Below, piece by piece: positions 2,311 through 38,260 of a stretch of DNA of 64,000 nucleotides. Numbering within the stretch: the stretch's first letter is position 1; every line of letters starts with the position of its first letter. Made by a program: the position numbers and the translations under genes. The notes under the pieces are model-generated. The model was given only the letters and a program-made list of their open reading frames with translations, searched no databases and was not told where the DNA came from. The stretch is from a virus (lineage: Duplodnaviria; Caudoviricetes). The stretch lies in IMG/VR virus record IMGVR_UViG_2836968376_000001; one strand, written 5' to 3'.

Positions 2311-2961
2311 ATGAATATCTACGAAAAAATCCTCGCGATCATGCAGGATGTCCAATATCTTGCCAAAGACGATCATGTCGAATTTGGAAAAACCAATTAC
2401 AAGGCGCTGTCTGAGGAAAAAGTAACAGCCATTATGCGCGCCGAGCTTATCAAGTACAACCTGATTGTCTATCCATTCCAGCAGGACTCCAACCGCGCGG
2501 GCAGCATCACCCACGTTGACACAAAATACCGGATGGTAAACGTGGAGGACCCGAAAGAATTTATCGAAATCGCTTCCGCTGGCGACGGTGCGGACTCGCA
2601 GGATAAAGGTTCAGGCAAGGCCATGACATACGCCTTTAAGTACATGTGGCTTCGTGTATTTGCACTTCCAACCGGGGAGGACCCCGACAAGATTTCAAGT
2701 GCCGAATTGGATGATAAGGCCGAAAAAGAGGCAGAAAAAGCCCAAAAAGCCGCTCCTCAGTACATCGGCGAGATCAAGCAGACCGTCATACTCAAAGAGT
2801 TGCACCGTACCGGATGGAACGCAAAAGAAATGTTGGCGTACCTCGGCAAGAAGTTCCCGCACGACGTGCCCGATACCATCGGCCACATTACAGAAGCACA
2901 GTTTACGTTTATCGTGAAAGCTCTGGAAAAGCGCCCGGATAAGGACGCTGAACCGGCATGA
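2311..2961 (+). CDS. ERF-family single-strand annealing protein
   Basis: NIYEKILAIM..KD..G.GADSQDKGSGKAMTYAFKY..F.LPTGEDPD motifs. Confidence 0.85.
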   Translation: MNIYEKILAIMQDVQYLAKDDHVEFGKTNYKALSEEKVTAIMRAELIKYNLIVYPFQQDSNRAGSITHVDTKYRMVNVEDPKEFIEIASAGDGADSQDKGSGKAMTYAFKYMWLRVFALPTGEDPDKISSAELDDKAEKEAEKAQKAAPQYIGEIKQTVILKELHRTGWNAKEMLAYLGKKFPHDVPDTIGHITEAQFTFIVKALEKRPDKDAEPA

Positions 2962-3494
2962 GGATACAGTTTGACCGTGCACGATGGGCGCAGGACGGCG
3001 ATGGTTTTTGGCTCTCACTCCGCACCAGAGCATCGGAGCAGGCGAAGATGTTTCTCGACGATATGCAGAACGGAAAGCTCTATGATGCTGAGATAAAAAT
3101 CCACCGTGAAAAACGGTCGCTCGACGCCAACGCCTATGCATGGCTACTCATGGATAAACTCGCATCAAAACTCCATATATCTCCGGAGGAAATCTATCGC
3201 CTATATATTCACGATGTAGCCGGTAATTTTGTTATCCAGCCGGTTCGGGAAGATATGATTGAGCGATGGGATAAGATATGGTGCTCCGGTCACGTTGGCC
3301 GCATGACGGACGATCTCGGGGAGTGCAAGCATACGCCGGGATACCACAATATCCGTTGTTACCTCGGCTCCTCGGATTATGACTCCGCGCAAATGTCGCG
3401 CTTGATCGAGCTTATCGTTGACGATTGCAAAGCGCAGGGCATCCAAACCGATACGCCGGAGGAGATCGCAAAGAGGGAGGCGCTATGGACTTAG
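2958..3494 (+). CDS. NinB/Orf-like recombination accessory protein
   Basis: KRSLDANAYAW and GSS.YD..QMS.LI..IV..CK..GI motifs; position after annealase. Confidence 0.6.
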   Translation: MRIQFDRARWAQDGDGFWLSLRTRASEQAKMFLDDMQNGKLYDAEIKIHREKRSLDANAYAWLLMDKLASKLHISPEEIYRLYIHDVAGNFVIQPVREDMIERWDKIWCSGHVGRMTDDLGECKHTPGYHNIRCYLGSSDYDSAQMSRLIELIVDDCKAQGIQTDTPEEIAKREALWT

Positions 3495-4330
3495 AACAAA
3501 CAGCAATAAAACGGATTCAGTATGCCGCCGAGATTTCTGAAACGTACTATAATGCTCCGCTGATTGTTACATATTCCGGCGGCAAGGATTCAGAAGTCAA
3601 TTTGGAACTAACAAAAAGGGCTGGAATTGATTTTGAAGTTCAACACAATCATACCACGGCGGATGCGCCGGAAACCGTGCGGCATGTCCGGGAAACATTT
3701 CACAGGTTGGAATTGGAAGGTATTCAATGCACGCTAAATCTTCCACGGTATAAATGGCAACCGGCTAGCATCTGGGGACTGATTCCGTCTTTTGGACCTC
3801 CAACACGAATCTTTCGATGGTGTTGCAAAATTTTCAAGGAATCTGGCGGTAAAAATCGTTGTGTTACTACTGGGGTACGCTGGGATGAAAGCACAGGCAG
3901 AAAGGCTAACCGTGGAGCGCTTGAAGCGGGAAGAGACAATTTATTTTTTGATGATAATGACGAATCGCGCAAAGATTTTGAAGCGTGTCCAATAAAAGGC
4001 ACCACAACAATAAATCCAATAATTGAGTGGAAAAATTCAGATGTTTGGAGCTTTGCAAGGTCTGAACATTTATGTATGAATCCGCTTTATGAATGTGGCT
4101 TTTCTCGCGTTGGGTGTGTTGGTTGCCCGATGGCGCAGAAGCATCGTTACGATGAATTCCGAAGATACCCAAAGTATGAATTAAATTATCGTCTCGCATT
4201 TGGAAGAATGATTAAAAGGCGAAAAGCAGCCGGAAAACCTACGCAATGGAAAACCGCAGATGAAGTTTTTGATTGGTGGATGGAGGACAAAAACCTTGAC
4301 GGTCAGATTGAATTTGAAGGGGTGAAATGA
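3485..4330 (+). CDS. PAPS-reductase family (PP-loop) protein
   Basis: SGGKDS PP-loop, WCCK..KE, GVRWDES, INPII.W, RVGCVGCP; RBS GGGAGG. Confidence 0.9.
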   Translation: MDLEQTAIKRIQYAAEISETYYNAPLIVTYSGGKDSEVNLELTKRAGIDFEVQHNHTTADAPETVRHVRETFHRLELEGIQCTLNLPRYKWQPASIWGLIPSFGPPTRIFRWCCKIFKESGGKNRCVTTGVRWDESTGRKANRGALEAGRDNLFFDDNDESRKDFEACPIKGTTTINPIIEWKNSDVWSFARSEHLCMNPLYECGFSRVGCVGCPMAQKHRYDEFRRYPKYELNYRLAFGRMIKRRKAAGKPTQWKTADEVFDWWMEDKNLDGQIEFEGVK

Positions 4331-29586: not shown

Positions 29587-30149
29587 TGTTTTACGATGAA
29601 CAGTCAAATTATCTCAACCAGCTCCCGGAACGGCTGCAAGGAATTGTTGAGGTCAACGCGATAGCCGGGTCGGTTGATTTTGAAATCGACAAGCTGTCCG
29701 CCGCCGTAAAAAAGGCAGTAAATAATAAGTTCCCGTCAACCGCAGACGAAGACGGATGCGCACGATGGGAAAAGATACTGAGTCTATCCGCGCCGCTCAA
29801 TGGCACGTTACAGGCCCGCAGAGACGCAATCAGGGCAAAGATCATAACAAAGCCTCCAATCAATCTCATGGTATTAAAATCCATTGTTGAGGCTTACATG
29901 GGCCTTGAAGTTGATGTATCGCTCGATGGGTATCAGGTACACATTAAGTACCGCGGCGAGTCCAGAATTGCCGACCTCAATCCTCTGTACGCTACCATGT
30001 GGAAAACGATACCGGCTAACATGCTGGTGGATATTGCTTATCTCTATACGATATGGGATGAACTGGATGCGCAAAGCCTGACATTTGACGAGCTGGACGC
30101 TAAAAATTTGACTATGAATGCTTTTGAGAAAGGAGAGTGGATTTCGTGA
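29586..30149 (+). CDS. XkdU-like (DUF2313) baseplate protein
   Basis: TA.E.G..RWEK.L, L..RR..I, IPAN. Confidence 0.85.
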   Translation: MFYDEQSNYLNQLPERLQGIVEVNAIAGSVDFEIDKLSAAVKKAVNNKFPSTADEDGCARWEKILSLSAPLNGTLQARRDAIRAKIITKPPINLMVLKSIVEAYMGLEVDVSLDGYQVHIKYRGESRIADLNPLYATMWKTIPANMLVDIAYLYTIWDELDAQSLTFDELDAKNLTMNAFEKGEWIS

Positions 30150-31729
30150 ACGCAATCACTGAATTTTTAGGGACGGACGGAGCGACACGGGCGAATTTCA
30201 ATAGCCGAATCTCAGAAATGAACACTGCGTGCGTCCAGACTTATACTTACACCAAATCCAGCGGCGTATATGCCTTGTCAGGATCAGGACCAAACGGAAA
30301 ATTTTATGCCAATGACGATTACGCGGAAGGGGACACGTTTACGGTCAACGGTACGGCGGTCACGGCGCAGTTGCAGAACGGGGACAGCTTGCCGGACGAA
30401 TTTTTCAAGGCCGGGGCGACAGTGCCGTTCATCTACGACGCGGAGAATGCAAAGCTAAATTTTAAGCAGTCCGGAGGTACGAAATTAAATCTGTTTGTGC
30501 AGCCGGACGAACCAGAGAATAAAAATGGTATCTGGATTGAAGCGCCCGAAAAACATTCCGTAAACAGGATCACAGACAAAAACAGCTTTACCATTGGCGG
30601 AGAGATCAGGACGTATGATAGCTCACTGAACGCTGGAACTGCATTTAATACAGTAAGTAATCTTGATAGGACGGTTGCTCTTTCATATAATGGCGATATC
30701 TATCAAATACGAGGGCATTTACTTGGTGCAACATTATATTTGTATATTTATCGTTGGAATCATTCCACAAATACGGTATCAACTGTTTATTCTCATACTA
30801 TAACTTTATCCAGTTCTGGTTCAGCTCCTGGCATTTCCGCCGTTATTGCCTGTATCTCTGGTACTACCTTATATGCGGCGGTATCCTGTGTTTATGATGA
30901 TACCGTTGGAACGATTATCTGCAATTTTGATTTAACAACACAAATAGGGACTACAACAACTGATGCAGCACATGATTTATTAACAGGCCAAACAGGAAAT
31001 GTTAGCTATATGTTTCCTTCTGGTCAAGTGGGAGCTAAAGGCACCATTGTCTATTTTGTCTATAGGGCTAACTTTCCAAATACTCCTTCTTATTATACTG
31101 CTTTGCTTTCTTTTGATTTTGCTACAAATACACATCATACTATAAAAACAATCAGTTCAAATACTACATCTCAAGATAATGAAAAATCATTATCCGAAGG
31201 TGTCCTAGTCGATGACAAAATTTATTATCAGTGCTTTACTGATTCATCCGATACTTCACAAACCACAATCCGAATTTTTGACACGACAACAAACACTGAA
31301 ACAACACAATCATTAGGCGGGTCGTTGCATCCGCTTCCTTCAATTTATGGTATAACTGCTTATCAAAACAAACTGTATTTGCGTTGTACTGATTCAACTG
31401 CATCATTGCATGAATTTGAAATTGGAGTATGGACAAACCGGACAATTTCCCCATTTGCTACTGCAATTGTCGCTGTTATTCAAATCGGCACATCATTAGC
31501 GGTTTTATATTCTTCAGGAAATATCCAGTATTACGACTTTGCTTCTGAAACGCTTGCGGAAAATACGCTGGCGATTTTGGACGGAATCAGCCGAAATACG
31601 CAGTTAATTTCTACCAGCAAAATGAATGTTCCGTTTCGTTTTCAAGATGCCTGGTGGTATTCAACCGATTTCAACGAATACCCGACATACATCGGTGACG
31701 GGTCCGCATGGACAAAGTATAAGAATTAG
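30137..31729 (+). CDS. Tail fibre/receptor-binding protein with AT-rich central domain
   Basis: After baseplate; GDTFTVNG N-domain, Thr/Ser/Tyr-rich beta-propeller-like middle. Confidence 0.75.
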   Translation: MDFVNAITEFLGTDGATRANFNSRISEMNTACVQTYTYTKSSGVYALSGSGPNGKFYANDDYAEGDTFTVNGTAVTAQLQNGDSLPDEFFKAGATVPFIYDAENAKLNFKQSGGTKLNLFVQPDEPENKNGIWIEAPEKHSVNRITDKNSFTIGGEIRTYDSSLNAGTAFNTVSNLDRTVALSYNGDIYQIRGHLLGATLYLYIYRWNHSTNTVSTVYSHTITLSSSGSAPGISAVIACISGTTLYAAVSCVYDDTVGTIICNFDLTTQIGTTTTDAAHDLLTGQTGNVSYMFPSGQVGAKGTIVYFVYRANFPNTPSYYTALLSFDFATNTHHTIKTISSNTTSQDNEKSLSEGVLVDDKIYYQCFTDSSDTSQTTIRIFDTTTNTETTQSLGGSLHPLPSIYGITAYQNKLYLRCTDSTASLHEFEIGVWTNRTISPFATAIVAVIQIGTSLAVLYSSGNIQYYDFASETLAENTLAILDGISRNTQLISTSKMNVPFRFQDAWWYSTDFNEYPTYIGDGSAWTKYKN

Positions 31730-31740
31730 GAGGTCTTACA

Positions 31741-32079
31741 ATGGCTTATCAATCATGGCGGGTTTGGGATGGTACGTCTGCTTTAGCCGGTGTTCCACAG
31801 GCCACGCCGGAAGCTCTGACAAAGGCGTACAGCCTTGACAGCACAAAGCAACTTATCATCTACAAGGACGCGGACGGGAACGAGGGCAATGTCAGGGTAT
31901 ACGCCTCGACGGTATCCACGGAAACCATTCAGGCGGATTTTGACGCGGAAGTGGCGCGGCAGGAAGCGGAGGCCGGTAATAAAACGGATTTACAGAAACT
32001 ACAGGAGCAGGTTGCCTATACTCAGGCGGCGCAGCTTGCAATACAGGCTTATATAGCTCAGCAGGGAGGTACAACATGA
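31741..32079 (+). CDS. Hypothetical protein (fibre assembly-like)
   Basis: AGGAGG RBS, C-terminal coiled coil. Confidence 0.7.
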   Translation: MAYQSWRVWDGTSALAGVPQATPEALTKAYSLDSTKQLIIYKDADGNEGNVRVYASTVSTETIQADFDAEVARQEAEAGNKTDLQKLQEQVAYTQAAQLAIQAYIAQQGGTT

Positions 32080-32432
32080 CTTGTAAAGCAATGATCGAAA
32101 TTTTGTTTAATACGGGGCTGTTTTCTACGGTATACAAATTGTTGATGGTCATTAACTGCTGGATTTCAGGGCTGATTTCGCTGACCGATGCGCAAGATCT
32201 GTGCACGGCATGCGGGTTCACTTTTACCAAACCGGCCGCTACGGGCCAAACGGTCCTTACGGACGGCACCGCTGCATATACGCTGGTATCTTTGATTACA
32301 GACTATCACGACAATGCTTATTCAAAATCGATATCGATGGAGATCGAAATACATAGCTTGATCGATACTTTGCAAAAGGCCGGCTATCTTACGACAGATG
32401 AACAAACATCCCTGAAAGGGCTGGAATGGTAA
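32076..32432 (+). CDS. Hypothetical protein
   Basis: GGAGG RBS, coupled. Confidence 0.65.
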   Translation: MTCKAMIEILFNTGLFSTVYKLLMVINCWISGLISLTDAQDLCTACGFTFTKPAATGQTVLTDGTAAYTLVSLITDYHDNAYSKSISMEIEIHSLIDTLQKAGYLTTDEQTSLKGLEW

Positions 32433-32878
32433 TGCAGAAATTCGCCGCGTGGATACGGCGGCACAAAACAAAATTTATTGATACCGGAATCGCATTAGGG
32501 CTTGTGCTTTTGGCATGGGCCTATTTTAATGCGCCGGTCAATATCAACCGCATGACAGCCGCAGACTGGCGGGATACGCACATTCAGAAAATAGGCGCGG
32601 TTACAATTCAAAAGCTGGAATCGAACGGGGCGTACCAGGACATTCGGGAAGTCGACGCGCTGCCAGGAATCGGCCCGGTTAAAATGATACAGATTCGGCA
32701 TTACTTTACCACATGGGATACGGCAAAGGCCGACGTATGGTATTGGGGGCTGCTGGCAGGGCTGATTTTAACATTCGGCTGCGGGCTTGCGCGGCATGTT
32801 GTCAGATCGAACAAGCGGGAGGCAGCGCGGAGGCTGGAACGACGGTTAGGGCTGGATGATAAAAACGTGAAGCGGTGA
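32426..32878 (+). CDS. Two-TM membrane protein with ComEA-like helix-hairpin-helix domain
   Basis: PVNIN..IQKIG..NGAY..I.E...LPGIG.. flanked by two hydrophobic segments. Confidence 0.75.
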   Translation: MVMQKFAAWIRRHKTKFIDTGIALGLVLLAWAYFNAPVNINRMTAADWRDTHIQKIGAVTIQKLESNGAYQDIREVDALPGIGPVKMIQIRHYFTTWDTAKADVWYWGLLAGLILTFGCGLARHVVRSNKREAARRLERRLGLDDKNVKR

Positions 32879-32882
32879 TAAT

Positions 32883-33164
32883 GTGGGGGCAATTGAAATC
32901 GGAACGATCATTGCAATTGTCGGGTGCTTTGTCGGCCTCGCTGGATGGCTGAACGGAAGAGACAAGCGCATCGCGGACGATGGGGAATGGAAAGGCTCCG
33001 TCAACGCGAAACTGGATTCTATCCATAACGATATTTCCGGCGTTGGAAAAGATATTTCAGAAATAAAAAGCGCGCAGGTTGAGGCAAATAAAAAACTGGA
33101 AAACCATGAAACCCGAATTACTGTCCTTGAAAGTAAAGTGGACGGAAAGGAAAAAACAGCATGA
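32883..33164 (+). CDS. Holin-like/XhlA-like membrane protein
   Basis: N-terminal TM, coiled coil, HETRITVLE; before endolysin. Confidence 0.7.
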   Translation: MGAIEIGTIIAIVGCFVGLAGWLNGRDKRIADDGEWKGSVNAKLDSIHNDISGVGKDISEIKSAQVEANKKLENHETRITVLESKVDGKEKTA

Positions 33165-34024
33165 ATTATACTCTTGGAATTGATGTATCCCACCACAATG
33201 GCATTTTAAGCCTTGCGAAGCTCAAAGCAACGGGGCACTGTCAGTTCGCGATCATCCGCGTCTGTCACGGCACGACGATGGACCGGCAATTTTCCACGAA
33301 CCTCGCGGCCTGTAAGACGCTGAGAATCCCGTATGCCTTTTATTGGTATGCGGAATCCGCGACGGTTTCCGGAGCGCAAGCGGAGGCAAGATTTGTCCTG
33401 TCGAAGATTGCAGGAACATCGCCGTTGTTCGTCGCCTACGATGCCGAATGCGACGCGCTTGCGGCGCTGGGAAAGAATCAGACCACGGATACCGCTTGGG
33501 CCGCGCTGGAGCTTGTGAAGAACGCTGGATATGATCCGTGGGTTTATAGTAACGAGAGCTGGAAGCGGAATGAGATTGATATCCAGTACCTGAAAAACAA
33601 AGGCGTAAAATTTTGGTACGCACGGTACACCGGGCAGAACCCGGACGAAGCAAGCTATGCCTCTCTGTGCGACATGTGGCAGTATTCCAGCACCGGCAAG
33701 CTCTCCGGGAACGGCTCGCAATATATAGACCTCAACATCTGCTACAATTCAGCGCTGAATGTGAAGATCGGCGGCGGGGGGATCACGGTCGGTTCTTCTT
33801 ACTGCGATACGACGATGGACATTAAGATCAAGCGCGGCCAGACTTACACTTTGGCCACTGGTTCTAAAAACGTCACGACCGGAAATAGCACGGTGATTCA
33901 GACGGCGGGACAGACCGTCTCCGGAGGGAAGTATCTCACCACTCTGAAAGCCGCAGGGGCCGTTGGGCAGGGAGCCGGGGTATTCGTCAACGGCGTAAAG
34001 AAGTTCGTCGCGACGGTCGTATGA
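33161..34024 (+). CDS. GH25 muramidase endolysin
   Basis: GIDVSHHNG, AYDAE, WYARY, MWQYSS.G, DLN. Confidence 0.92.
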   Translation: MNYTLGIDVSHHNGILSLAKLKATGHCQFAIIRVCHGTTMDRQFSTNLAACKTLRIPYAFYWYAESATVSGAQAEARFVLSKIAGTSPLFVAYDAECDALAALGKNQTTDTAWAALELVKNAGYDPWVYSNESWKRNEIDIQYLKNKGVKFWYARYTGQNPDEASYASLCDMWQYSSTGKLSGNGSQYIDLNICYNSALNVKIGGGGITVGSSYCDTTMDIKIKRGQTYTLATGSKNVTTGNSTVIQTAGQTVSGGKYLTTLKAAGAVGQGAGVFVNGVKKFVATVV

Positions 34025-34365
34025 AGCGGCACATGAGGAAACGTACAACCCACAAGCTTATTACCAATGCGGTCCATCTGGCATGTCTCGCGGCGGCGGT
34101 CTACATCTTTGCCGTCTGGCGGACCGGAACGGTCACGGATGCCCCGCAGATGCTTCAATACGTCGCGTGGGTAGAGATCGTCAACCTGTCGCAATATGCC
34201 GCGAAAAGCGGATATGACCATCATTGCGGCGTGTTCGATAATCCTGCAATTCAGGCGGCGGTTCAGGGCATGCAGACCGGCGACCTGTCACAGGCCGCGC
34301 AGGTGATCTCCGCAGCGCAGGACAGCCAGACCGATTCTGGCGGAAATAATAACATGGCCGGTTAA
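34021..34365 (+). CDS. Lysis-module membrane protein
   Basis: Two hydrophobic segments, Y.AKS motif. Confidence 0.65.
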   Translation: MKRHMRKRTTHKLITNAVHLACLAAAVYIFAVWRTGTVTDAPQMLQYVAWVEIVNLSQYAAKSGYDHHCGVFDNPAIQAAVQGMQTGDLSQAAQVISAAQDSQTDSGGNNNMAG

Positions 34366-34385: not shown

Positions 34386-34751
34386 ATGACAATCGATATT
34401 ACTCAGGTCATTGTTGCGATCATCGGAGTGGTGGGCACCGCACTCATGGGCGCTATCACTGCCTACCTGGTCCCCTGGCTGAAATCAAAGCTCACGGCCA
34501 ATCAGATATCTGTGATCTCCGGGCTGGTCTACAATGGCGTTAAGGCGGCGGAAACGTTATTCACGGAAAGCGGCAGCGGGGAAAAGAAATTTCAATACGT
34601 CATGGATTCGGTCAAGGCGTTTTGCGAAAAGTACCGCATCACTTTTGACGAAACCGCCGTGAAGAATGAGATTCAATCTGTCTGGAAGGATTTATTCAGC
34701 CACGATACTGAAAGCGGGGCGGTCGCGTCCGGCACCACGGGCGCGAAATAA
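34386..34751 (+). CDS. LL-H-family holin
   Basis: TM then PWLK.K, V.AAE.L...G.GE.K..YV. Confidence 0.85.
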   Translation: MTIDITQVIVAIIGVVGTALMGAITAYLVPWLKSKLTANQISVISGLVYNGVKAAETLFTESGSGEKKFQYVMDSVKAFCEKYRITFDETAVKNEIQSVWKDLFSHDTESGAVASGTTGAK

Positions 34752-34766
34752 CATACAGATATGATT

Positions 34767-34808
34767 ATGCCCTCCTGACCGTGATGGTTGGGAGGGCATT
34801 TTTTATTT
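34767..34808. terminator. Late-operon terminator
   Basis: ATGCCCTCCTGACC-GTGAT-GGTTGGGAGGGCAT followed by T-tract. Confidence 0.8.
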
Positions 34809-36667: not shown

Positions 36668-38260
36668 TTATCCTGCCATTTGCGCTTGGGAGTAGCTTAC
36701 GGCTACTCCTTTTCTTGTCTGTATCAGAACATCCGGTTCCTGTAGAGATGAAACATCCGGTATTTCAATGGAGCCGATACAATTATAATGAATAGTCAGC
36801 TTCTGGACGTATACGCCGTTTACCTTCTCAGCCTGATGGACTTCAATGTGATCGATCAGTTCGTTCAGCATACGCGGTGTGAGCTTTCTGGCTCTGGTAT
36901 ATTTACGCACAGTGGCAATGAACATATCCGTGCCCACAGATTGACGGCTTTCTTTATCAAGCTCGGCCCTCAGCGTTTTTATCCGCCCTGCTAATCCGCT
37001 CTGCTCATCTTCATACTGCTTGGTCATTTTTGAAAACCGCTCGTCGGAAATTTTCCCGGCCACATTGTCCTCATACATTCGATCAAACAGTCGGTCAATC
37101 TCTTTATCGCGGGCCAACAGAGCATTGTATCCTTTTTGCTTTTTCTGCCGCTCAAGTTCCACCGTTTGCTGAGAATGTCCCATAACCGCTTTGACAAATT
37201 CATCTTCATACTTGCTCGCAAATTTTGTGAGCCTGTGGATTTCTCCCAGTACGACCTGTTCCAGAAAGTCGACACGGATATAATGGGTAGAAGCACAAGT
37301 ACCCCGATTACCTTTGTAATTGGAACAGTTGAAATACTTGATGTCCGGGTTGCCCTGATTGAAGTGGTAATGCAGATTGTGACCGCAGTCGGCACAGACA
37401 AGCAAGCCGGAAAACATATTGGTTTCTCCCTCATTGGTTTTCCGCTTACGGATTTTGCCGCGCTTCTGCTGTACTTTTTCCCATGAAGCGCGGTCAATGA
37501 CCGGATCATGCACATCCTTAAAGATAACCCAATTGTCACGGTCGTTCTCAATTCGCTTCTTATTCTTGTAGGATTTGCTGTACGTCTTGAAATTGAGAAC
37601 GTCCCCGCAATACTCCTGTAAGGAAAGAATCTTCGTGATAGTTGAACTGTTCCATTTCGTGGGCGGTGCGTCTTTATGCTTGCCAGGGCGGTTGACACCT
37701 CGTGTTTGCCAATAAGATATTGGAGTCAGGATGCTATCCGTCGCATCCATCGAATCATCCGGTGCAGCGGCCTCCGGTTTTCGGTCTGCCGGATTGGATT
37801 GATACGTATTTGCTCTATCCGTATTTGATTTTTTAGGGATATTAGTTCCCTTAGTATTTAATTGCGCGGGATTTTCCGTATCCGGTTTTTCCATATCCGG
37901 GGTATCCAGATACGGCTTTTCCGTATCTGGTGAATCCGTATCTGGGAAAGGCGTACCCGGCGGCTTGCGCGGCTGCTCATAGATGGTATATTCGGTATCC
38001 GTGATGCGCCCGTCTTTGCCGCGAAGCTGTTGGCGCTCCATATAGCCTGCGTTTTCCAGCTCCTTGAGTGCTTTTCCGATGGCGTCCACACCTTCCCGGC
38101 AGATGGAGGCAAGGCCCCGCGTGGTGTAATCCCAATCGTCCGGAAGGGAGAGCATCATGGACAGCAGCCCTTTCGCTTTCAGGGACAAGGCCCTGTTCTT
38201 CAGGTGATGGTTGCTCATAACCGTGTAGTCCCGCGTCCGCTCCACACGAAAAACCGCCAT
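36668..38260 (-). pseudogene. In-frame fusion of ICE Rep-like N-terminus to C-terminal half of a DUF4368-type serine recombinase (catalytic domain absent)
   Basis: MAVFRVER..YTVMSN..SLKAKGLL wHTH up to ~37745, then YCGD..NFKT, FSGLL.CADC similar to 56302-58011; no YxRxS motif. Confidence 0.85.

Follow-up and report, generated by a model that had tools for sequence, protein, structure and literature searches.

The 150-aa open reading frame analysed here (hereafter the target) is a genuine gene, conserved among relatives, and belongs to the late operon of a complete prophage with a contractile tail; the window, i.e., the whole stretch of DNA analysed, is 64,000 nucleotides long (IMG/VR record IMGVR_UViG_2836968376_000001). 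Judged from the target and its relatives, the gene product is very probably a membrane protein carrying a divergent short-type (HhH)2 domain of the ComEA/PsbU class, which is predicted to lie outside the membrane, and it is encoded in a cassette with a 118-aa orphan protein. If so, the ComEA fold of competence biology, known in soluble or singly tethered form, would have been recruited by phages into a membrane-clamped, tailed and partner-coupled architecture, and the gene lies at a boundary used by phages for lysis and accessory functions.

Late operon, family and upstream partner

The element has the terminase, portal, capsid, sheath, tape measure and baseplate genes of a prophage, and the GH25 endolysin and LLH holin are encoded close to the target (Table 1), which confirms the earlier note on this DNA in calling the gene phage-encoded and adjoining lysis genes. 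The target gene is separated from its neighbours by gaps or overlaps of at most 4 nt, its GC content is that of the neighbours, and the one terminator of the operon lies 3′ of the holin gene. A crude scan for the sigma-70 consensus found no promoter-like site on the target strand from 30691 to 34214. The idea that the target is a moron with its own composition or promoter was rejected, because neither a GC break nor such a site was found. Most homologues begin at a second ATG, which lies at 32432 in the window and overlaps the stop codon of the preceding gene as TAATG, so the protein is possibly 148 aa long; the 150-aa numbering is used throughout. The 93-aa protein encoded downstream matches phrog_1863 at 6.3e-10 and Pfam XhlA at E 0.049, and weak matches to coiled-coil families suggest that it contains a coiled coil.

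Table 1. Features of the target, of its parts and of the surrounding late operon (positions in the window).
Feature	Position	Strand	Basis
Putative tail fibre, 530 aa, low-GC C-terminal part	30137..31729	+	
112-aa ORF between tail fibre gene and partner, no family match	31741..32079	+	
Partner, 118 aa, soluble helical orphan protein, stop overlapping target start	32076..32432	+	
Target ORF, 150 aa, membrane protein of TM, ComEA-type HhH domain, TM	32426..32878	+	
N-tail, basic, aa 1-16, conserved AW.RRHK motif, predicted cytoplasmic	32426..32473	+	alignment, hydropathy/charge count
Hydrophobic helix 1, aa 17-35, signal anchor or cleavable signal peptide	32474..32530	+	Kyte-Doolittle
Short-type HHH_3 / ComEA-PsbU-like (HhH)2 domain, aa 36-97	32531..32716	+	profile and structure comparison
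Juxtamembrane motif F-T-T-W-D-T, aa 94-99, family-specific	32705..32722	+	alignment
Hydrophobic helix 2, aa 104-122, predicted membrane anchor absent from canonical ComEA	32735..32791	+	Kyte-Doolittle
C-tail, basic, aa 123-150, ending in conserved DKNVKR, predicted cytoplasmic	32792..32875	+	alignment, charge count
93-aa protein, N-terminal TM helix, weakly XhlA-like	32883..33164	+	
GH25 endolysin	33161..34024	+	family match
Single-TM protein, 114 aa, within lysis cassette	34021..34365	+	
Holin, Holin_LLH, phrog_6918	34386..34751	+	
Terminator-like hairpin, 15 pairs plus T-run, closing the late operon	34767..34799	+	

Thirty-two homologues of the target were found (E 5.6e-62 to 2.9e-38, identity 48–93%), and the 30-sequence alignment of the family holds 20 invariant columns. 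An exhaustive profile search with the family gave 189 cluster representatives at E ≤ 1e-3, of which 17 (124–162 aa) were fetched and aligned as a sample of the wider family; both hydrophobic segments are present in 15 of these distant members, the other two being P0050, which is without the first segment, and P0083, a tandem-repeat protein. Loci of relatives were located in viral contigs with a tight 8-sequence alignment, and no confirmed locus was found there for the distant relatives P0036, P0053 and P0085. The family is rare: it occurs in 2 of 301 genomes of the host's family and in 2 of 400 genomes of its class, one of the latter being a partial match. A tblastn search (E ≤ 0.01) of 50,697 cultured-phage records gave no match to the target, the ESM Atlas gave no usable match, and the PHROGs gave the family one match, of unknown function, together with one weak spanin match and none to holins. 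In the literature searched, no description of the TM-HhH-TM architecture was found either, in agreement with the opinion of the earlier note that no described system has it.

In 19 of 19 distinct loci (those with an intact gene and room upstream), the partner gene lies directly upstream of the target gene, its stop overlapping the start of the target. The pair has tail-fibre genes on one side and lysis genes on the other, although the types of tail, holin and endolysin beside it vary from locus to locus, and it looks like a two-gene cassette, that is, a portable accessory. A small TM protein and an endolysin follow the target in every locus with downstream sequence. The holins found in these loci are Holin_LLH (window), Phage_holin_1 (L025, truncated copy) and a weakly LLH-like protein (L027), and 91–92-aa membrane ORFs after the endolysin in L003 and L004 are candidate holins; the endolysins are GH25, M15/VanY and others without family assignment, and the tail modules beside the cassette differ among the loci. 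The partner itself had no PDB match below E 0.85 in Foldseek, VIA-align reached a best Z of 4.7, there was no Pfam match at E ≤ 1, the PHROGs matched 0 of 13 members, and the ESM Atlas scores were 0.81 or lower and often reached by shuffled sequences. Several matches to glycosyltransferase-51 transglycosylases, all sub-threshold, were not relied upon. The conserved tail motifs of the target, AW.RRHK and DKNVKR, are compatible with a cytoplasmic contact to the partner. The partner gene did not appear in the earlier note.

The HhH domain and its place on the membrane

Five approaches place the middle domain in the HHH_3 fold of ComEA/PsbU type, and the HhH assignment, predicted from profiles and models, holds at family level. 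When searched alone in Pfam, the target matches HHH_5 at E 0.12 and gives no HHH_3 match at E ≤ 1. HHH_3 is matched by 15 of 30 members of the close family (best 2.6e-4) and, in the wider family, by 13 of 23 (best 5e-6); the ComEA families TIGR00426 and TIGR01259 are matched by 14 of these 23, and PsbU (NF002708) by 13 of the 23, with a best value of 4.7e-6, about as good as the ComEA matches. The host's own ComEA (153 aa, canonical layout), which is encoded elsewhere in the genome together with ComEC, was found by the wide-family profile at E 9.2e-9, and hhalign aligned it with the family at E 6.5e-6 and a probability of 84.8. The top PDB profile matches of the family are 8dfk and 2duy, and the latter, a ComEA-related structure, is also the top Foldseek match of the target (TM 0.63 by target, rmsd 2.6 Å over 58 columns, probability 0.97, E 0.29), followed by PsbU at ranks 2–5. 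All structural matches of the target have E > 0.1; the AlphaFold pLDDT within the domain is 59–68. Among the viral structures of BFVD, only ComEA-annotated proteins of giant viruses match the domain (best E 0.21), and no phage protein of the same architecture was found. A VIA-align search with the whole target model reached a best Z of 7.2, mostly with unrelated helical hairpins fitting the two long helices; since these helices drive the matches, the result is uninformative on the domain.

The curated cut-offs are all missed: P0034 scores 23.3 bits against 152.35 (TIGR01259) and 53.1 (TIGR00426) and 24.1 bits against 27 (HHH_3), and the best PsbU score is 26.6 bits against 85. The TM-HhH-TM family and the partner family are both labelled hypothetical at present, the former because all its HhH matches fall below the curated cut-offs.

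The motifs named in the earlier note are all present in the 150-aa frame, that is, VNIN (aa 38–41), NG.Y (NGAY, aa 67–70) and LPGIG (aa 79–83), as are the two hydrophobic segments and the basic tails. After its VNIN cap, the domain has a first hairpin that is degenerate (K-I-G), then P/A-Y and a canonical second hairpin, G-I-G-P-V-K. In the domain alignment with secreted short-type HHH_3 repeats, the family is gap-free from the first hairpin on and has a 2–4-residue insertion before it; both have a Thr three positions past hairpin 1, the P-Y and, in hairpin 2, the G-I-G with its K/R. The first glycine of hairpin 1 is lost in the window's subfamily, and the second hairpin with its basic residue is canonical in the target family. 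In sequence, the closest relatives of the family are ComEA-type repeats and not PsbU. T96, W97, D98 and T99 of the juxtamembrane motif are invariant in the close family, and the wider family has F.T.DT.R.

K164 is the most important lysine of B. subtilis ComEA and is needed for DNA binding and transformation (PMC9747964). Mapped by count on the alignments, its position corresponds to an invariant Thr (T60) in the close family. Since the secreted short-type repeats also have Thr there and the host ComEA has Leu, this Thr is not evidence excluding DNA binding. The loop of the target is net neutral, and the host ComEA domain is likewise.

As for topology, Kyte-Doolittle analysis gives two hydrophobic segments in 47 of 49 family members, and the mean counts of K+R against D+E are 4.0/0.5 in the 12-aa N-tail, 8.2/3.9 in the 26-aa C-tail and 8.2/8.3 in the 71-aa loop; the target itself has 5 K/R against 1 D/E in the N-tail and 11 against 4 in the C-tail. 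Because 47 of the 49 relatives have this positive-inside pattern, an N-in/C-in protein with the domain outside is predicted, as the earlier note had proposed. The multi-repeat relatives P0040, P0048, P0083 and P0139 have a hydrophobic, signal-peptide-like N-terminus in 4 of 4 sequences read. The domain would therefore be placed on the outer face of the membrane, held by helix 2 and probably by helix 1 as well. As it follows helix 1 without a linker and is separated from helix 2 by about 7 residues, it is expected to be flush against the bilayer. Helix 1 may, however, be a cleaved signal peptide instead of a lasting second anchor: before Tyr33, position −1 is A/G/C/S/T in 30 of 30 sequences and position −3 is V/A/T in 23 of 30 (A30-W31-A32 in the target). 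Of the "doubly membrane-anchored" protein of the earlier note, the two hydrophobic helices are thus confirmed, and the double anchoring is uncertain because helix 1 may be followed by a signal-peptidase site. The target has no lipobox cysteine behind this helix.

Candidate functions of the cassette

In a tentative reading, which is quite possible but short of probable, the target would be an accessory of the lysis step, that is, a sensor or clamp for DNA outside the membrane. Late in infection, its outward domain would bind dsDNA or another phosphodiester polyanion of this kind within the wall space; the DNA would come from lysed neighbours or from abortive superinfection, and the signal would pass to the membrane and cytoplasmic side via the conserved basic tails and the partner protein, so as to modulate the moment of cell lysis. 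The target is small and has a charged C-tail, as in holins and antiholins. In a more specific version, the cassette of phages of Gram-positive anaerobes would be a lysis-inhibition-like system, evolved independently of T4 RI/T, which delays or triggers holin firing on external DNA, with the partner bound to the tails; this is unlikely. The antiholin role suggested in the earlier note is weakened, as far as it would be tied to one holin, because several unrelated holin families co-occur with the target, and, since unrelated holins, endolysins and tail modules accompany the pair, its look of a portable accessory argues against a specific holin partner. Counting against DNA sensing as such, as far as can be read from the sequences, are the degenerate hairpin 1, the Thr at the K164 position, the net-neutral loop and the precedent of PsbU, in which the fold is able to serve protein binding without DNA. 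The missed curated cut-offs, the structural E values, the low pLDDT of the domain and the rarity of the family also weigh against this reading.

If the domain binds DNA, the family is a candidate for the perception of extracellular or superinfecting DNA by Gram-positive phages; to our knowledge, such perception in lysis control has so far been addressed mainly in T4. If it does not, the fold would, for the second time after PsbU, have a function other than DNA binding on the outside of a membrane. As the window is from a genome complete in one contig, the prophage may be testable there if the strain is cultured.

Among the other explanations, it is unlikely that the outward domain captures incoming DNA or, as a mimic, takes the place of the host ComEA, thereby blocking superinfection or transformation. 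The presence of ComEA and ComEC in the host would make the pathway available for interference, and the resemblance of the cassette to a portable accessory fits as well; competence blocking is frequent among mobile elements (PMC12378983), Ltp is a precedent for surface-exposed exclusion (PMC3952083), and one ComEA of a Gram-positive bacterium is a phage receptor according to a report (PMC9009173), so that a mimic could matter in phage entry. The exclusion or competence inhibition from the prophage state that the earlier note considered is nevertheless weakened by the packing of the target in the late operon, without a promoter-like site between 30691 and 34214 and without a compositional break. 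The exclusion genes known of this type are those expressed while the phage is a prophage, and DNA entering by the tail tube is normally not exposed outside the membrane. Moreover, no ComEA homologue is among the competence inhibitors covered in the available part of PMC12378983. Were the topology inverted, a cytoplasmic domain might tether phage DNA to the membrane for replication or packaging, which is extremely unlikely in view of the strong positive-inside pattern in 47 of the 49 members and of the position of the gene among late tail and lysis genes, not replication genes. HhH domains do bind DNA irrespective of its sequence, and phage DNA is known to become attached to membranes, p16.7 of phi29 reportedly tethering phage DNA to the membrane, but ComEA and PsbU are extracytoplasmic and the four multi-repeat relatives look so.

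A ligand other than DNA is improbable too. In this explanation the HhH fold binds a protein or a polymer, e.g., teichoic acid or another envelope component, and the pair serves as an envelope accessory by which the membrane or wall would be prepared or marked for release or assembly; the PsbU matches about equal to those of ComEA, the degenerate first hairpin with no lysine after it, the invariant juxtamembrane T-W-D-T without ComEA counterpart, and the predicted position of the domain flush with the membrane, where lipid-anchored polymers would begin, all point this way, while the canonical second hairpin with its basic residue, the closest relatives being ComEA-type repeats and not PsbU, and the lack of a candidate ligand point the other way. 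It is very unlikely that the target is itself a pore-forming holin, i.e., a two-helix N-in/C-in protein with a globular loop and one of several holins in the cassette. The features by which class II-type holins are described are found in it (small size, two hydrophobic helices, N-in/C-in topology as predicted, a highly charged C-tail, and a lysis-proximal gene two genes from the endolysin), and a large outward domain is compatible with a holin, as is seen in T4 holin T; yet no holin family is matched in Pfam or PHROGs, other holin-family or candidate proteins are encoded nearby in the window, L025, L027 (weak), L003 and L004, and a folded loop of 70 residues is atypical of class II holins.

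Likenesses to known systems

The reading of the target as a lysis accessory has a precedent in T4, whose lysis inhibition is believed to be set off by phage DNA in the periplasm, with the antiholin RI as its sensor (PMC8385771). The holin T and the antiholin RI (PMC8385771, PMC11413866) are likewise small phage membrane proteins with an outward globular part, and theirs controls lysis timing. No sequence or fold relation of the target to them was found, the host of T4 is Gram-negative, and RI is specific for its holin, whereas the target family occurs with several holin families.

Among surface proteins of phages, Ltp of phage TP-J34 is said to be built of DNA-binding-like helix-turn-helix folds, and it is reportedly a lipoprotein whose gene lies in the lysogeny module and is expressed in the prophage state. 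As the prototype of surface-exposed exclusion lipoproteins (PMC3952083), it is comparable to the target in being phage-encoded, surface-exposed and tethered to the outer face of a Gram-positive membrane, the latter two being predicted for the target; the target differs in its HhH fold, hydrophobic helices, late-operon gene and missing lipobox cysteine. Mobile elements often block competence, e.g., with ComI of pBS32, Prx of streptococcal prophages and others, and ComI is a single-pass membrane protein suspected of contacting ComGA, ComEA or ComEC (PMC12378983). The target is likewise small and from a mobile element, and it could be directed at the DNA-uptake apparatus, but the inhibitors in the available part of that source include neither a ComEA homologue nor one known from a late lysis-proximal operon.

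PsbU shares the fold class and the non-cytoplasmic membrane face; it is, however, a soluble lumenal subunit of photosystem II without membrane helices or phage context, and the target is similar to it at fold level alone. The host, judged from the organisms of related loci, is a non-photosynthetic member of the Bacillota.

ComEA of B. subtilis and G. stearothermophilus (PDB 8dfk, 8dss; PMC9747964) has a homologous HhH domain with the N-I-N cap, the P-Y/F and the second G-I-G hairpin. It is tethered to the membrane, as is the target with its domain predicted outside, and by analogy the expected activity of the latter would be non-specific binding to the dsDNA backbone. The layout of ComEA is one N-terminal anchor or signal peptide, a linker and a C-terminal HhH domain, with an oligomerisation domain added in Gram-positives (PMC9747964), whereas the domain of the target begins right after helix 1 (aa 36), without flexible linker or oligomerisation domain, and has a second hydrophobic helix and a basic tail of 28 aa behind it. 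The ComEA gene belongs to the chromosomal core and a competence context, and the target gene to a prophage late operon. The target is not a ComEA orthologue and not a competence DNA-uptake receptor. From the "ComEA-like DNA receptor" of the earlier note, therefore, the ComEA-type fold is retained; the rest is weakened by the missed curated thresholds, the absent linker and oligomerisation region, and the host's possession of its own ComEA and ComEC.

The short-type secreted HHH_3 proteins (T. thermophilus 2duy; P0040, P0048, P0083 and P0139) give the best structural match and the gap-free alignment, and the family profile picks up such repeat proteins with E values from 1e-18 to 1e-4. They carry Thr or Lys three residues after hairpin 1, and they are soluble or secreted and often have 2–7 repeats, whereas the phage family has one domain between two helices and the T-W-D-T motif.

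Gene and late-operon setting

As judged from its gene content, the element in the window is a complete contractile-tailed prophage, in which a DnaB-like helicase, large terminase, portal, head protein, major capsid, sheath, tube and tape measure were recognised, together with YqbQ-like, sheath initiator, baseplate J and Mu gp48-like proteins. The ORF that the earlier note had delimited was confirmed on the plus strand (150 aa; hereafter the HhH protein). Its first ATG lies 7 nt ahead of the end of the upstream ORF (the partner), and a second ATG at 32432 overlaps the TAA of that ORF as TAATG; since the start of most homologues corresponds to the second ATG, the product has 148 or 150 aa. In this stretch the intergenic gaps are at most 20 nt and several genes overlap, a crude scan of 30691–34214 found no promoter-like site on the plus strand, and the GC of the gene (0.49–0.55) is like that of its neighbours, so that it reads as a late-operon gene. 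A self-contained moron was also considered, and was rejected on the present evidence, which is the absence of a promoter-like site in this crude scan and the neighbour-like GC.

Features of the tail/lysis junction of the window, in gene order
Feature	Coordinates	Strand	Remarks
530-aa fibre-like ORF	30137–31729	+	first in order
112-aa ORF		+	between fibre-like ORF and partner
Partner, 118 aa	32076–32432	+	directly 5′ of the HhH protein gene
HhH protein, 150 aa	32426–32878	+	
93-aa protein			3′ of the HhH protein gene; TM helix at the N-terminus; weak resemblance to XhlA; weak family matches are the only basis for a coiled coil
GH25 endolysin			3′ of 93-aa protein
114-aa single-TM protein	34021–34365	+	between endolysin and holin
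LLH holin			last of cassette
Strong terminator-like hairpin	34767–34799		3′ of holin

In the fibre-like gene, the C-terminal two thirds (30400–31500) have a GC of 0.35–0.41 against about 0.48 around them, and relatives in other loci were seen for the N-terminus only; the low-GC part looks like an exchanged receptor-binding end. The 114-aa protein, an unnamed lysis-cassette member, has a clear relative at the same place in the related locus L035 (5694–6077). At 36668–38260 on the minus strand, a 530-aa protein carries N-terminal HTH_36 with Recombinase, Zn_ribbon_recom and DUF4368 and gave no match to a resolvase catalytic domain; at this end of the prophage, it may represent a large serine recombinase that is chimeric or in decay.

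Protein family, HhH domain and membrane topology

All the motifs claimed in the earlier note were found (VNIN, aa 38–41; NGAY, aa 67–70; LPGIG, aa 79–83), and its two hydrophobic segments (aa 17–35 and 104–122 in Kyte–Doolittle windows) and basic tails (5 K/R to 1 D/E in the N-tail, 11 to 4 in the C-tail) were borne out. A word-indexed search gave 32 homologues (E 5.6e-62 to 2.9e-38; 86–154 aa; 48–93% identity), all 32 without a functional name, and the alignment of 30 family sequences has 20 invariant columns. When 1.84 billion cluster representatives were searched exhaustively with a profile, 189 matched at E ≤ 1e-3. Among the small matches fetched, 17 proteins of 124–162 aa share one layout, in which a hydrophobic helix follows a basic N-tail, the N-I-N cap, HhH domain and F.T.DT.R motif come next, and a second helix leads into a C-tail that is again basic; a hydrophobicity scan found both helices in 15 of the 17, P0050 lacking the first and P0083 being a tandem-repeat protein. 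The remaining matches are mostly longer, with 2–7 matched stretches each, and the four sequences read (P0040, P0048, P0083 and P0139) carry tandem ComEA-type repeats after a signal-peptide-like N-terminus.

The family is rare. With the family profile, 301 genomes of the host's family yielded 2 carriers, one of them the host itself, and with the wide profile 400 scored genomes of the class yielded 2, one of these matches being partial and interrupted by internal stops; 50,697 cultured-phage records gave no match. By their organism titles, related contigs come from MAGs of Bacillota, Oscillospiraceae and Ruminococcaceae. The phage gene is present once in the host genome, which also encodes a canonical ComEA of its own (153 aa) and a ComEC.

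The evidence on the fold is singly weak and concordant. The protein alone matched only HHH_5 (E 0.12), scoring 13.3 bits where the cut-off is 27. Of the close members, 15 of 30 matched PF12836 (HHH_3), the best at 2.6e-4, and so did 13 of 23 in the wide set at E ≤ 0.01 (best 5e-6); in the latter, the NCBIfam ComEA models TIGR00426 and TIGR01259 matched 14 of 23 each and the PsbU model 13 of 23, all far under their cut-offs. Against PDB sequences, the family profile ranked B. subtilis ComEA first (8dfk, E 0.057) and the ComEA-related 2duy of T. thermophilus second (E 0.1), PsbU chains coming next. The host ComEA gene was matched at E 9.2e-9 in a whole-genome search with the wide-family profile, and hhalign aligned its product with the family at probability 84.8 (E 6.5e-6; 32% identity over 59 columns). 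In the AlphaFold model, for which the 30-sequence alignment served as input, the mean pLDDT is 72.9, with 78–90 in the two long helices and only 59–68 in the domain; in Foldseek against the PDB, 2duy was top (probability 0.97; TM 0.63 by target; rmsd 2.6 Å over 58 columns), followed by four PsbU chains and G. stearothermophilus ComEA 8dss, all at E > 0.1. The domain aligns without gaps to short-type secreted repeats from hairpin 1 on, ahead of which the family has an insertion of 2–4 residues, and both share a Thr three residues past hairpin 1, P-Y, and a second G-I-G followed by K/R. This concordance leads us to accept domain homology, the domain probably being of a divergent ComEA/PsbU type as judged from profiles and model.

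The description "ComEA-like" thus stands for the domain and falls for the protein: ComEA orthology was rejected, because curated thresholds, architecture, context and the hallmark lysine do not fit, and the protein works, at most, like a ComEA domain. In B. subtilis, K164 is described as the lysine on which ComEA function depends most (PMC9747964). By our own alignment mapping, the equivalent position in the family is a conserved Thr; this is mild evidence against DNA binding, as bona fide short-type repeats also have Thr there and the host ComEA has Leu.

Two hydrophobic segments are present in 47 of 49 distinct family sequences, the other two lacking the first. Across the 49, mean K+R to D+E is 4.0 to 0.5 in the 12-aa N-tail, 8.2 to 3.9 in the 26-aa C-tail and 8.2 to 8.3 in the 71-aa loop. 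By the positive-inside rule, basic tails are cytoplasmic; the charge pattern therefore predicts that the domain faces outside, as had been proposed, which fits its relatives, namely the extracytoplasmic ComEA and PsbU and the four multi-repeat proteins with their signal-peptide-like N-termini. The protein had also been called doubly anchored; both hydrophobic helices are there, and the lasting anchorage of helix 1 is in doubt. A-W-A ahead of Tyr33 (aa 30–33; 32513–32524) matches the −3/−1 rule of signal peptidase I, with A/G/C/S/T at −1 in 30 of 30 close relatives and V/A/T at −3 in 23 of 30, so that helix 1 could be removed after export; the conserved N-tail motif AW.RRHK and G25/W31 within the helix speak against cleavage.

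The conserved pairing with the upstream partner

The window and 29 related loci were searched with profiles of the HhH protein and of the partner, the partner profile having been made from 16 of the same loci and matching there by construction. After removal of five duplicate rows with identical scores or the same contig (L017 = L001; L028 and L033 = L002; L034 = L035; L031 = L003), 25 distinct loci remained, the window included. L011, L016, L019, L022 and L026 are uninformative, their contigs stopping where the gene starts or no more than about 100 nt from there, and in L025 the 5′-truncated copy abuts opposite-strand non-phage genes. In 19 of 19 informative distinct loci, the gene immediately 5′ of the HhH protein gene is that of the partner, on the same strand and either abutting or overlapping it, also in the distant subfamily (L002, L027, L035 and L036; 19–34% identity).

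The flanking genes change. A BLAST-recognisable homologue of the 93-aa protein lies 3′ of the gene in 12 of 24 locus rows compared, and a different small membrane protein fills its slot in L002, L003 and L027. The endolysin is of the GH25 type in L003 as in the window, of the M15/VanY type in L025 and without an assigned family in L027; the holin is Holin_LLH in the window and Phage_holin_1 in L025, and L003 and L004 have candidate holin ORFs of 91–92 aa without family assignment 3′ of the endolysin. Baseplate J was seen only in the window and L035 among the loci scanned. Since tail, holin and endolysin genes vary in this way, the stable unit at the tail/lysis junction of these otherwise mosaic phages is the partner with the HhH protein.

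The partner is predicted to be compact, mostly helical and soluble (pLDDT 94.9; pTM 0.86). Nothing convincing was found for it in the PDB by Foldseek (best E 0.85) or VIA-align (best Z 4.7) or in the ESM Atlas (scores 0.81 or lower), Pfam gave no match, and 0 of 13 family members matched PHROGs; it is an orphan family, as unexplained as the HhH protein.

Some individual loci may be added. L025 (4998–6603) is a remnant lysis cassette with a truncated copy (residues ~51–150 only), a small TM protein, M15/VanY and Phage_holin_1. L010 (982–1458), in a fermentation-metagenome contig of stated coverage 2, has a 95%-identical copy whose frame is split into two pieces at about residue 88, which would fit either a pseudogene or an error in sequencing. 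In L036, a reverse transcriptase (2473–3552; RVT_1, E 5e-20) between a fibre-like gene and the pair suggests a diversity-generating retroelement beside the cassette.

Possible function and known systems

With architecture, fold class, predicted orientation, operon membership and conserved pairing established in silico, we infer ligand, timing and role as follows. Tentatively, the protein may be a lysis-associated sensor or clamp, whose domain would hold or sense DNA, or a polyanion like it, on the outer face of the membrane and signal through its tails and the partner. The constant place by the lysis genes, the holin-like size with a charged tail, and the precedent of the T4 antiholin, believed to sense DNA outside the membrane (PMC8385771), point to this reading. 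The antiholin role proposed earlier is weakened in its strictly holin-specific form by the variety of co-occurring holins, and that the protein is the holin proper, in a cassette with its own LLH holin, is improbable.

Exclusion or competence interference is rather unlikely: mobile elements are described as blocking competence (PMC12378983) and ComEA is reported as an E. faecalis phage receptor (PMC9009173), but the late-operon packing makes it less likely that the lysogen expresses the gene. A PsbU-like role in binding something other than DNA, with PsbU among the structural matches and Thr at the K164 position, is about equally doubtful. An inverted topology, in which the domain would tether DNA in the cytoplasm, is very improbable given the tail charges. 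The sensor or clamp remains our working proposal, and function as a whole is conjecture.

Searches of open-access literature and preprints brought up no account of a ComEA-type membrane protein encoded by a phage, in agreement with the earlier remark that no described system is known to have this architecture; what is new here is the architecture and the obligatory partner, both of them testable. By gene order alone, the slot is presumably the place of XepA in PBSX-like elements. Gram-positive ComEA is described with a linker and an oligomerisation domain (PMC9747964), whereas the domain of the phage protein begins directly past helix 1 and stops about 7 residues short of helix 2, so that it is predicted to lie flat on the membrane.
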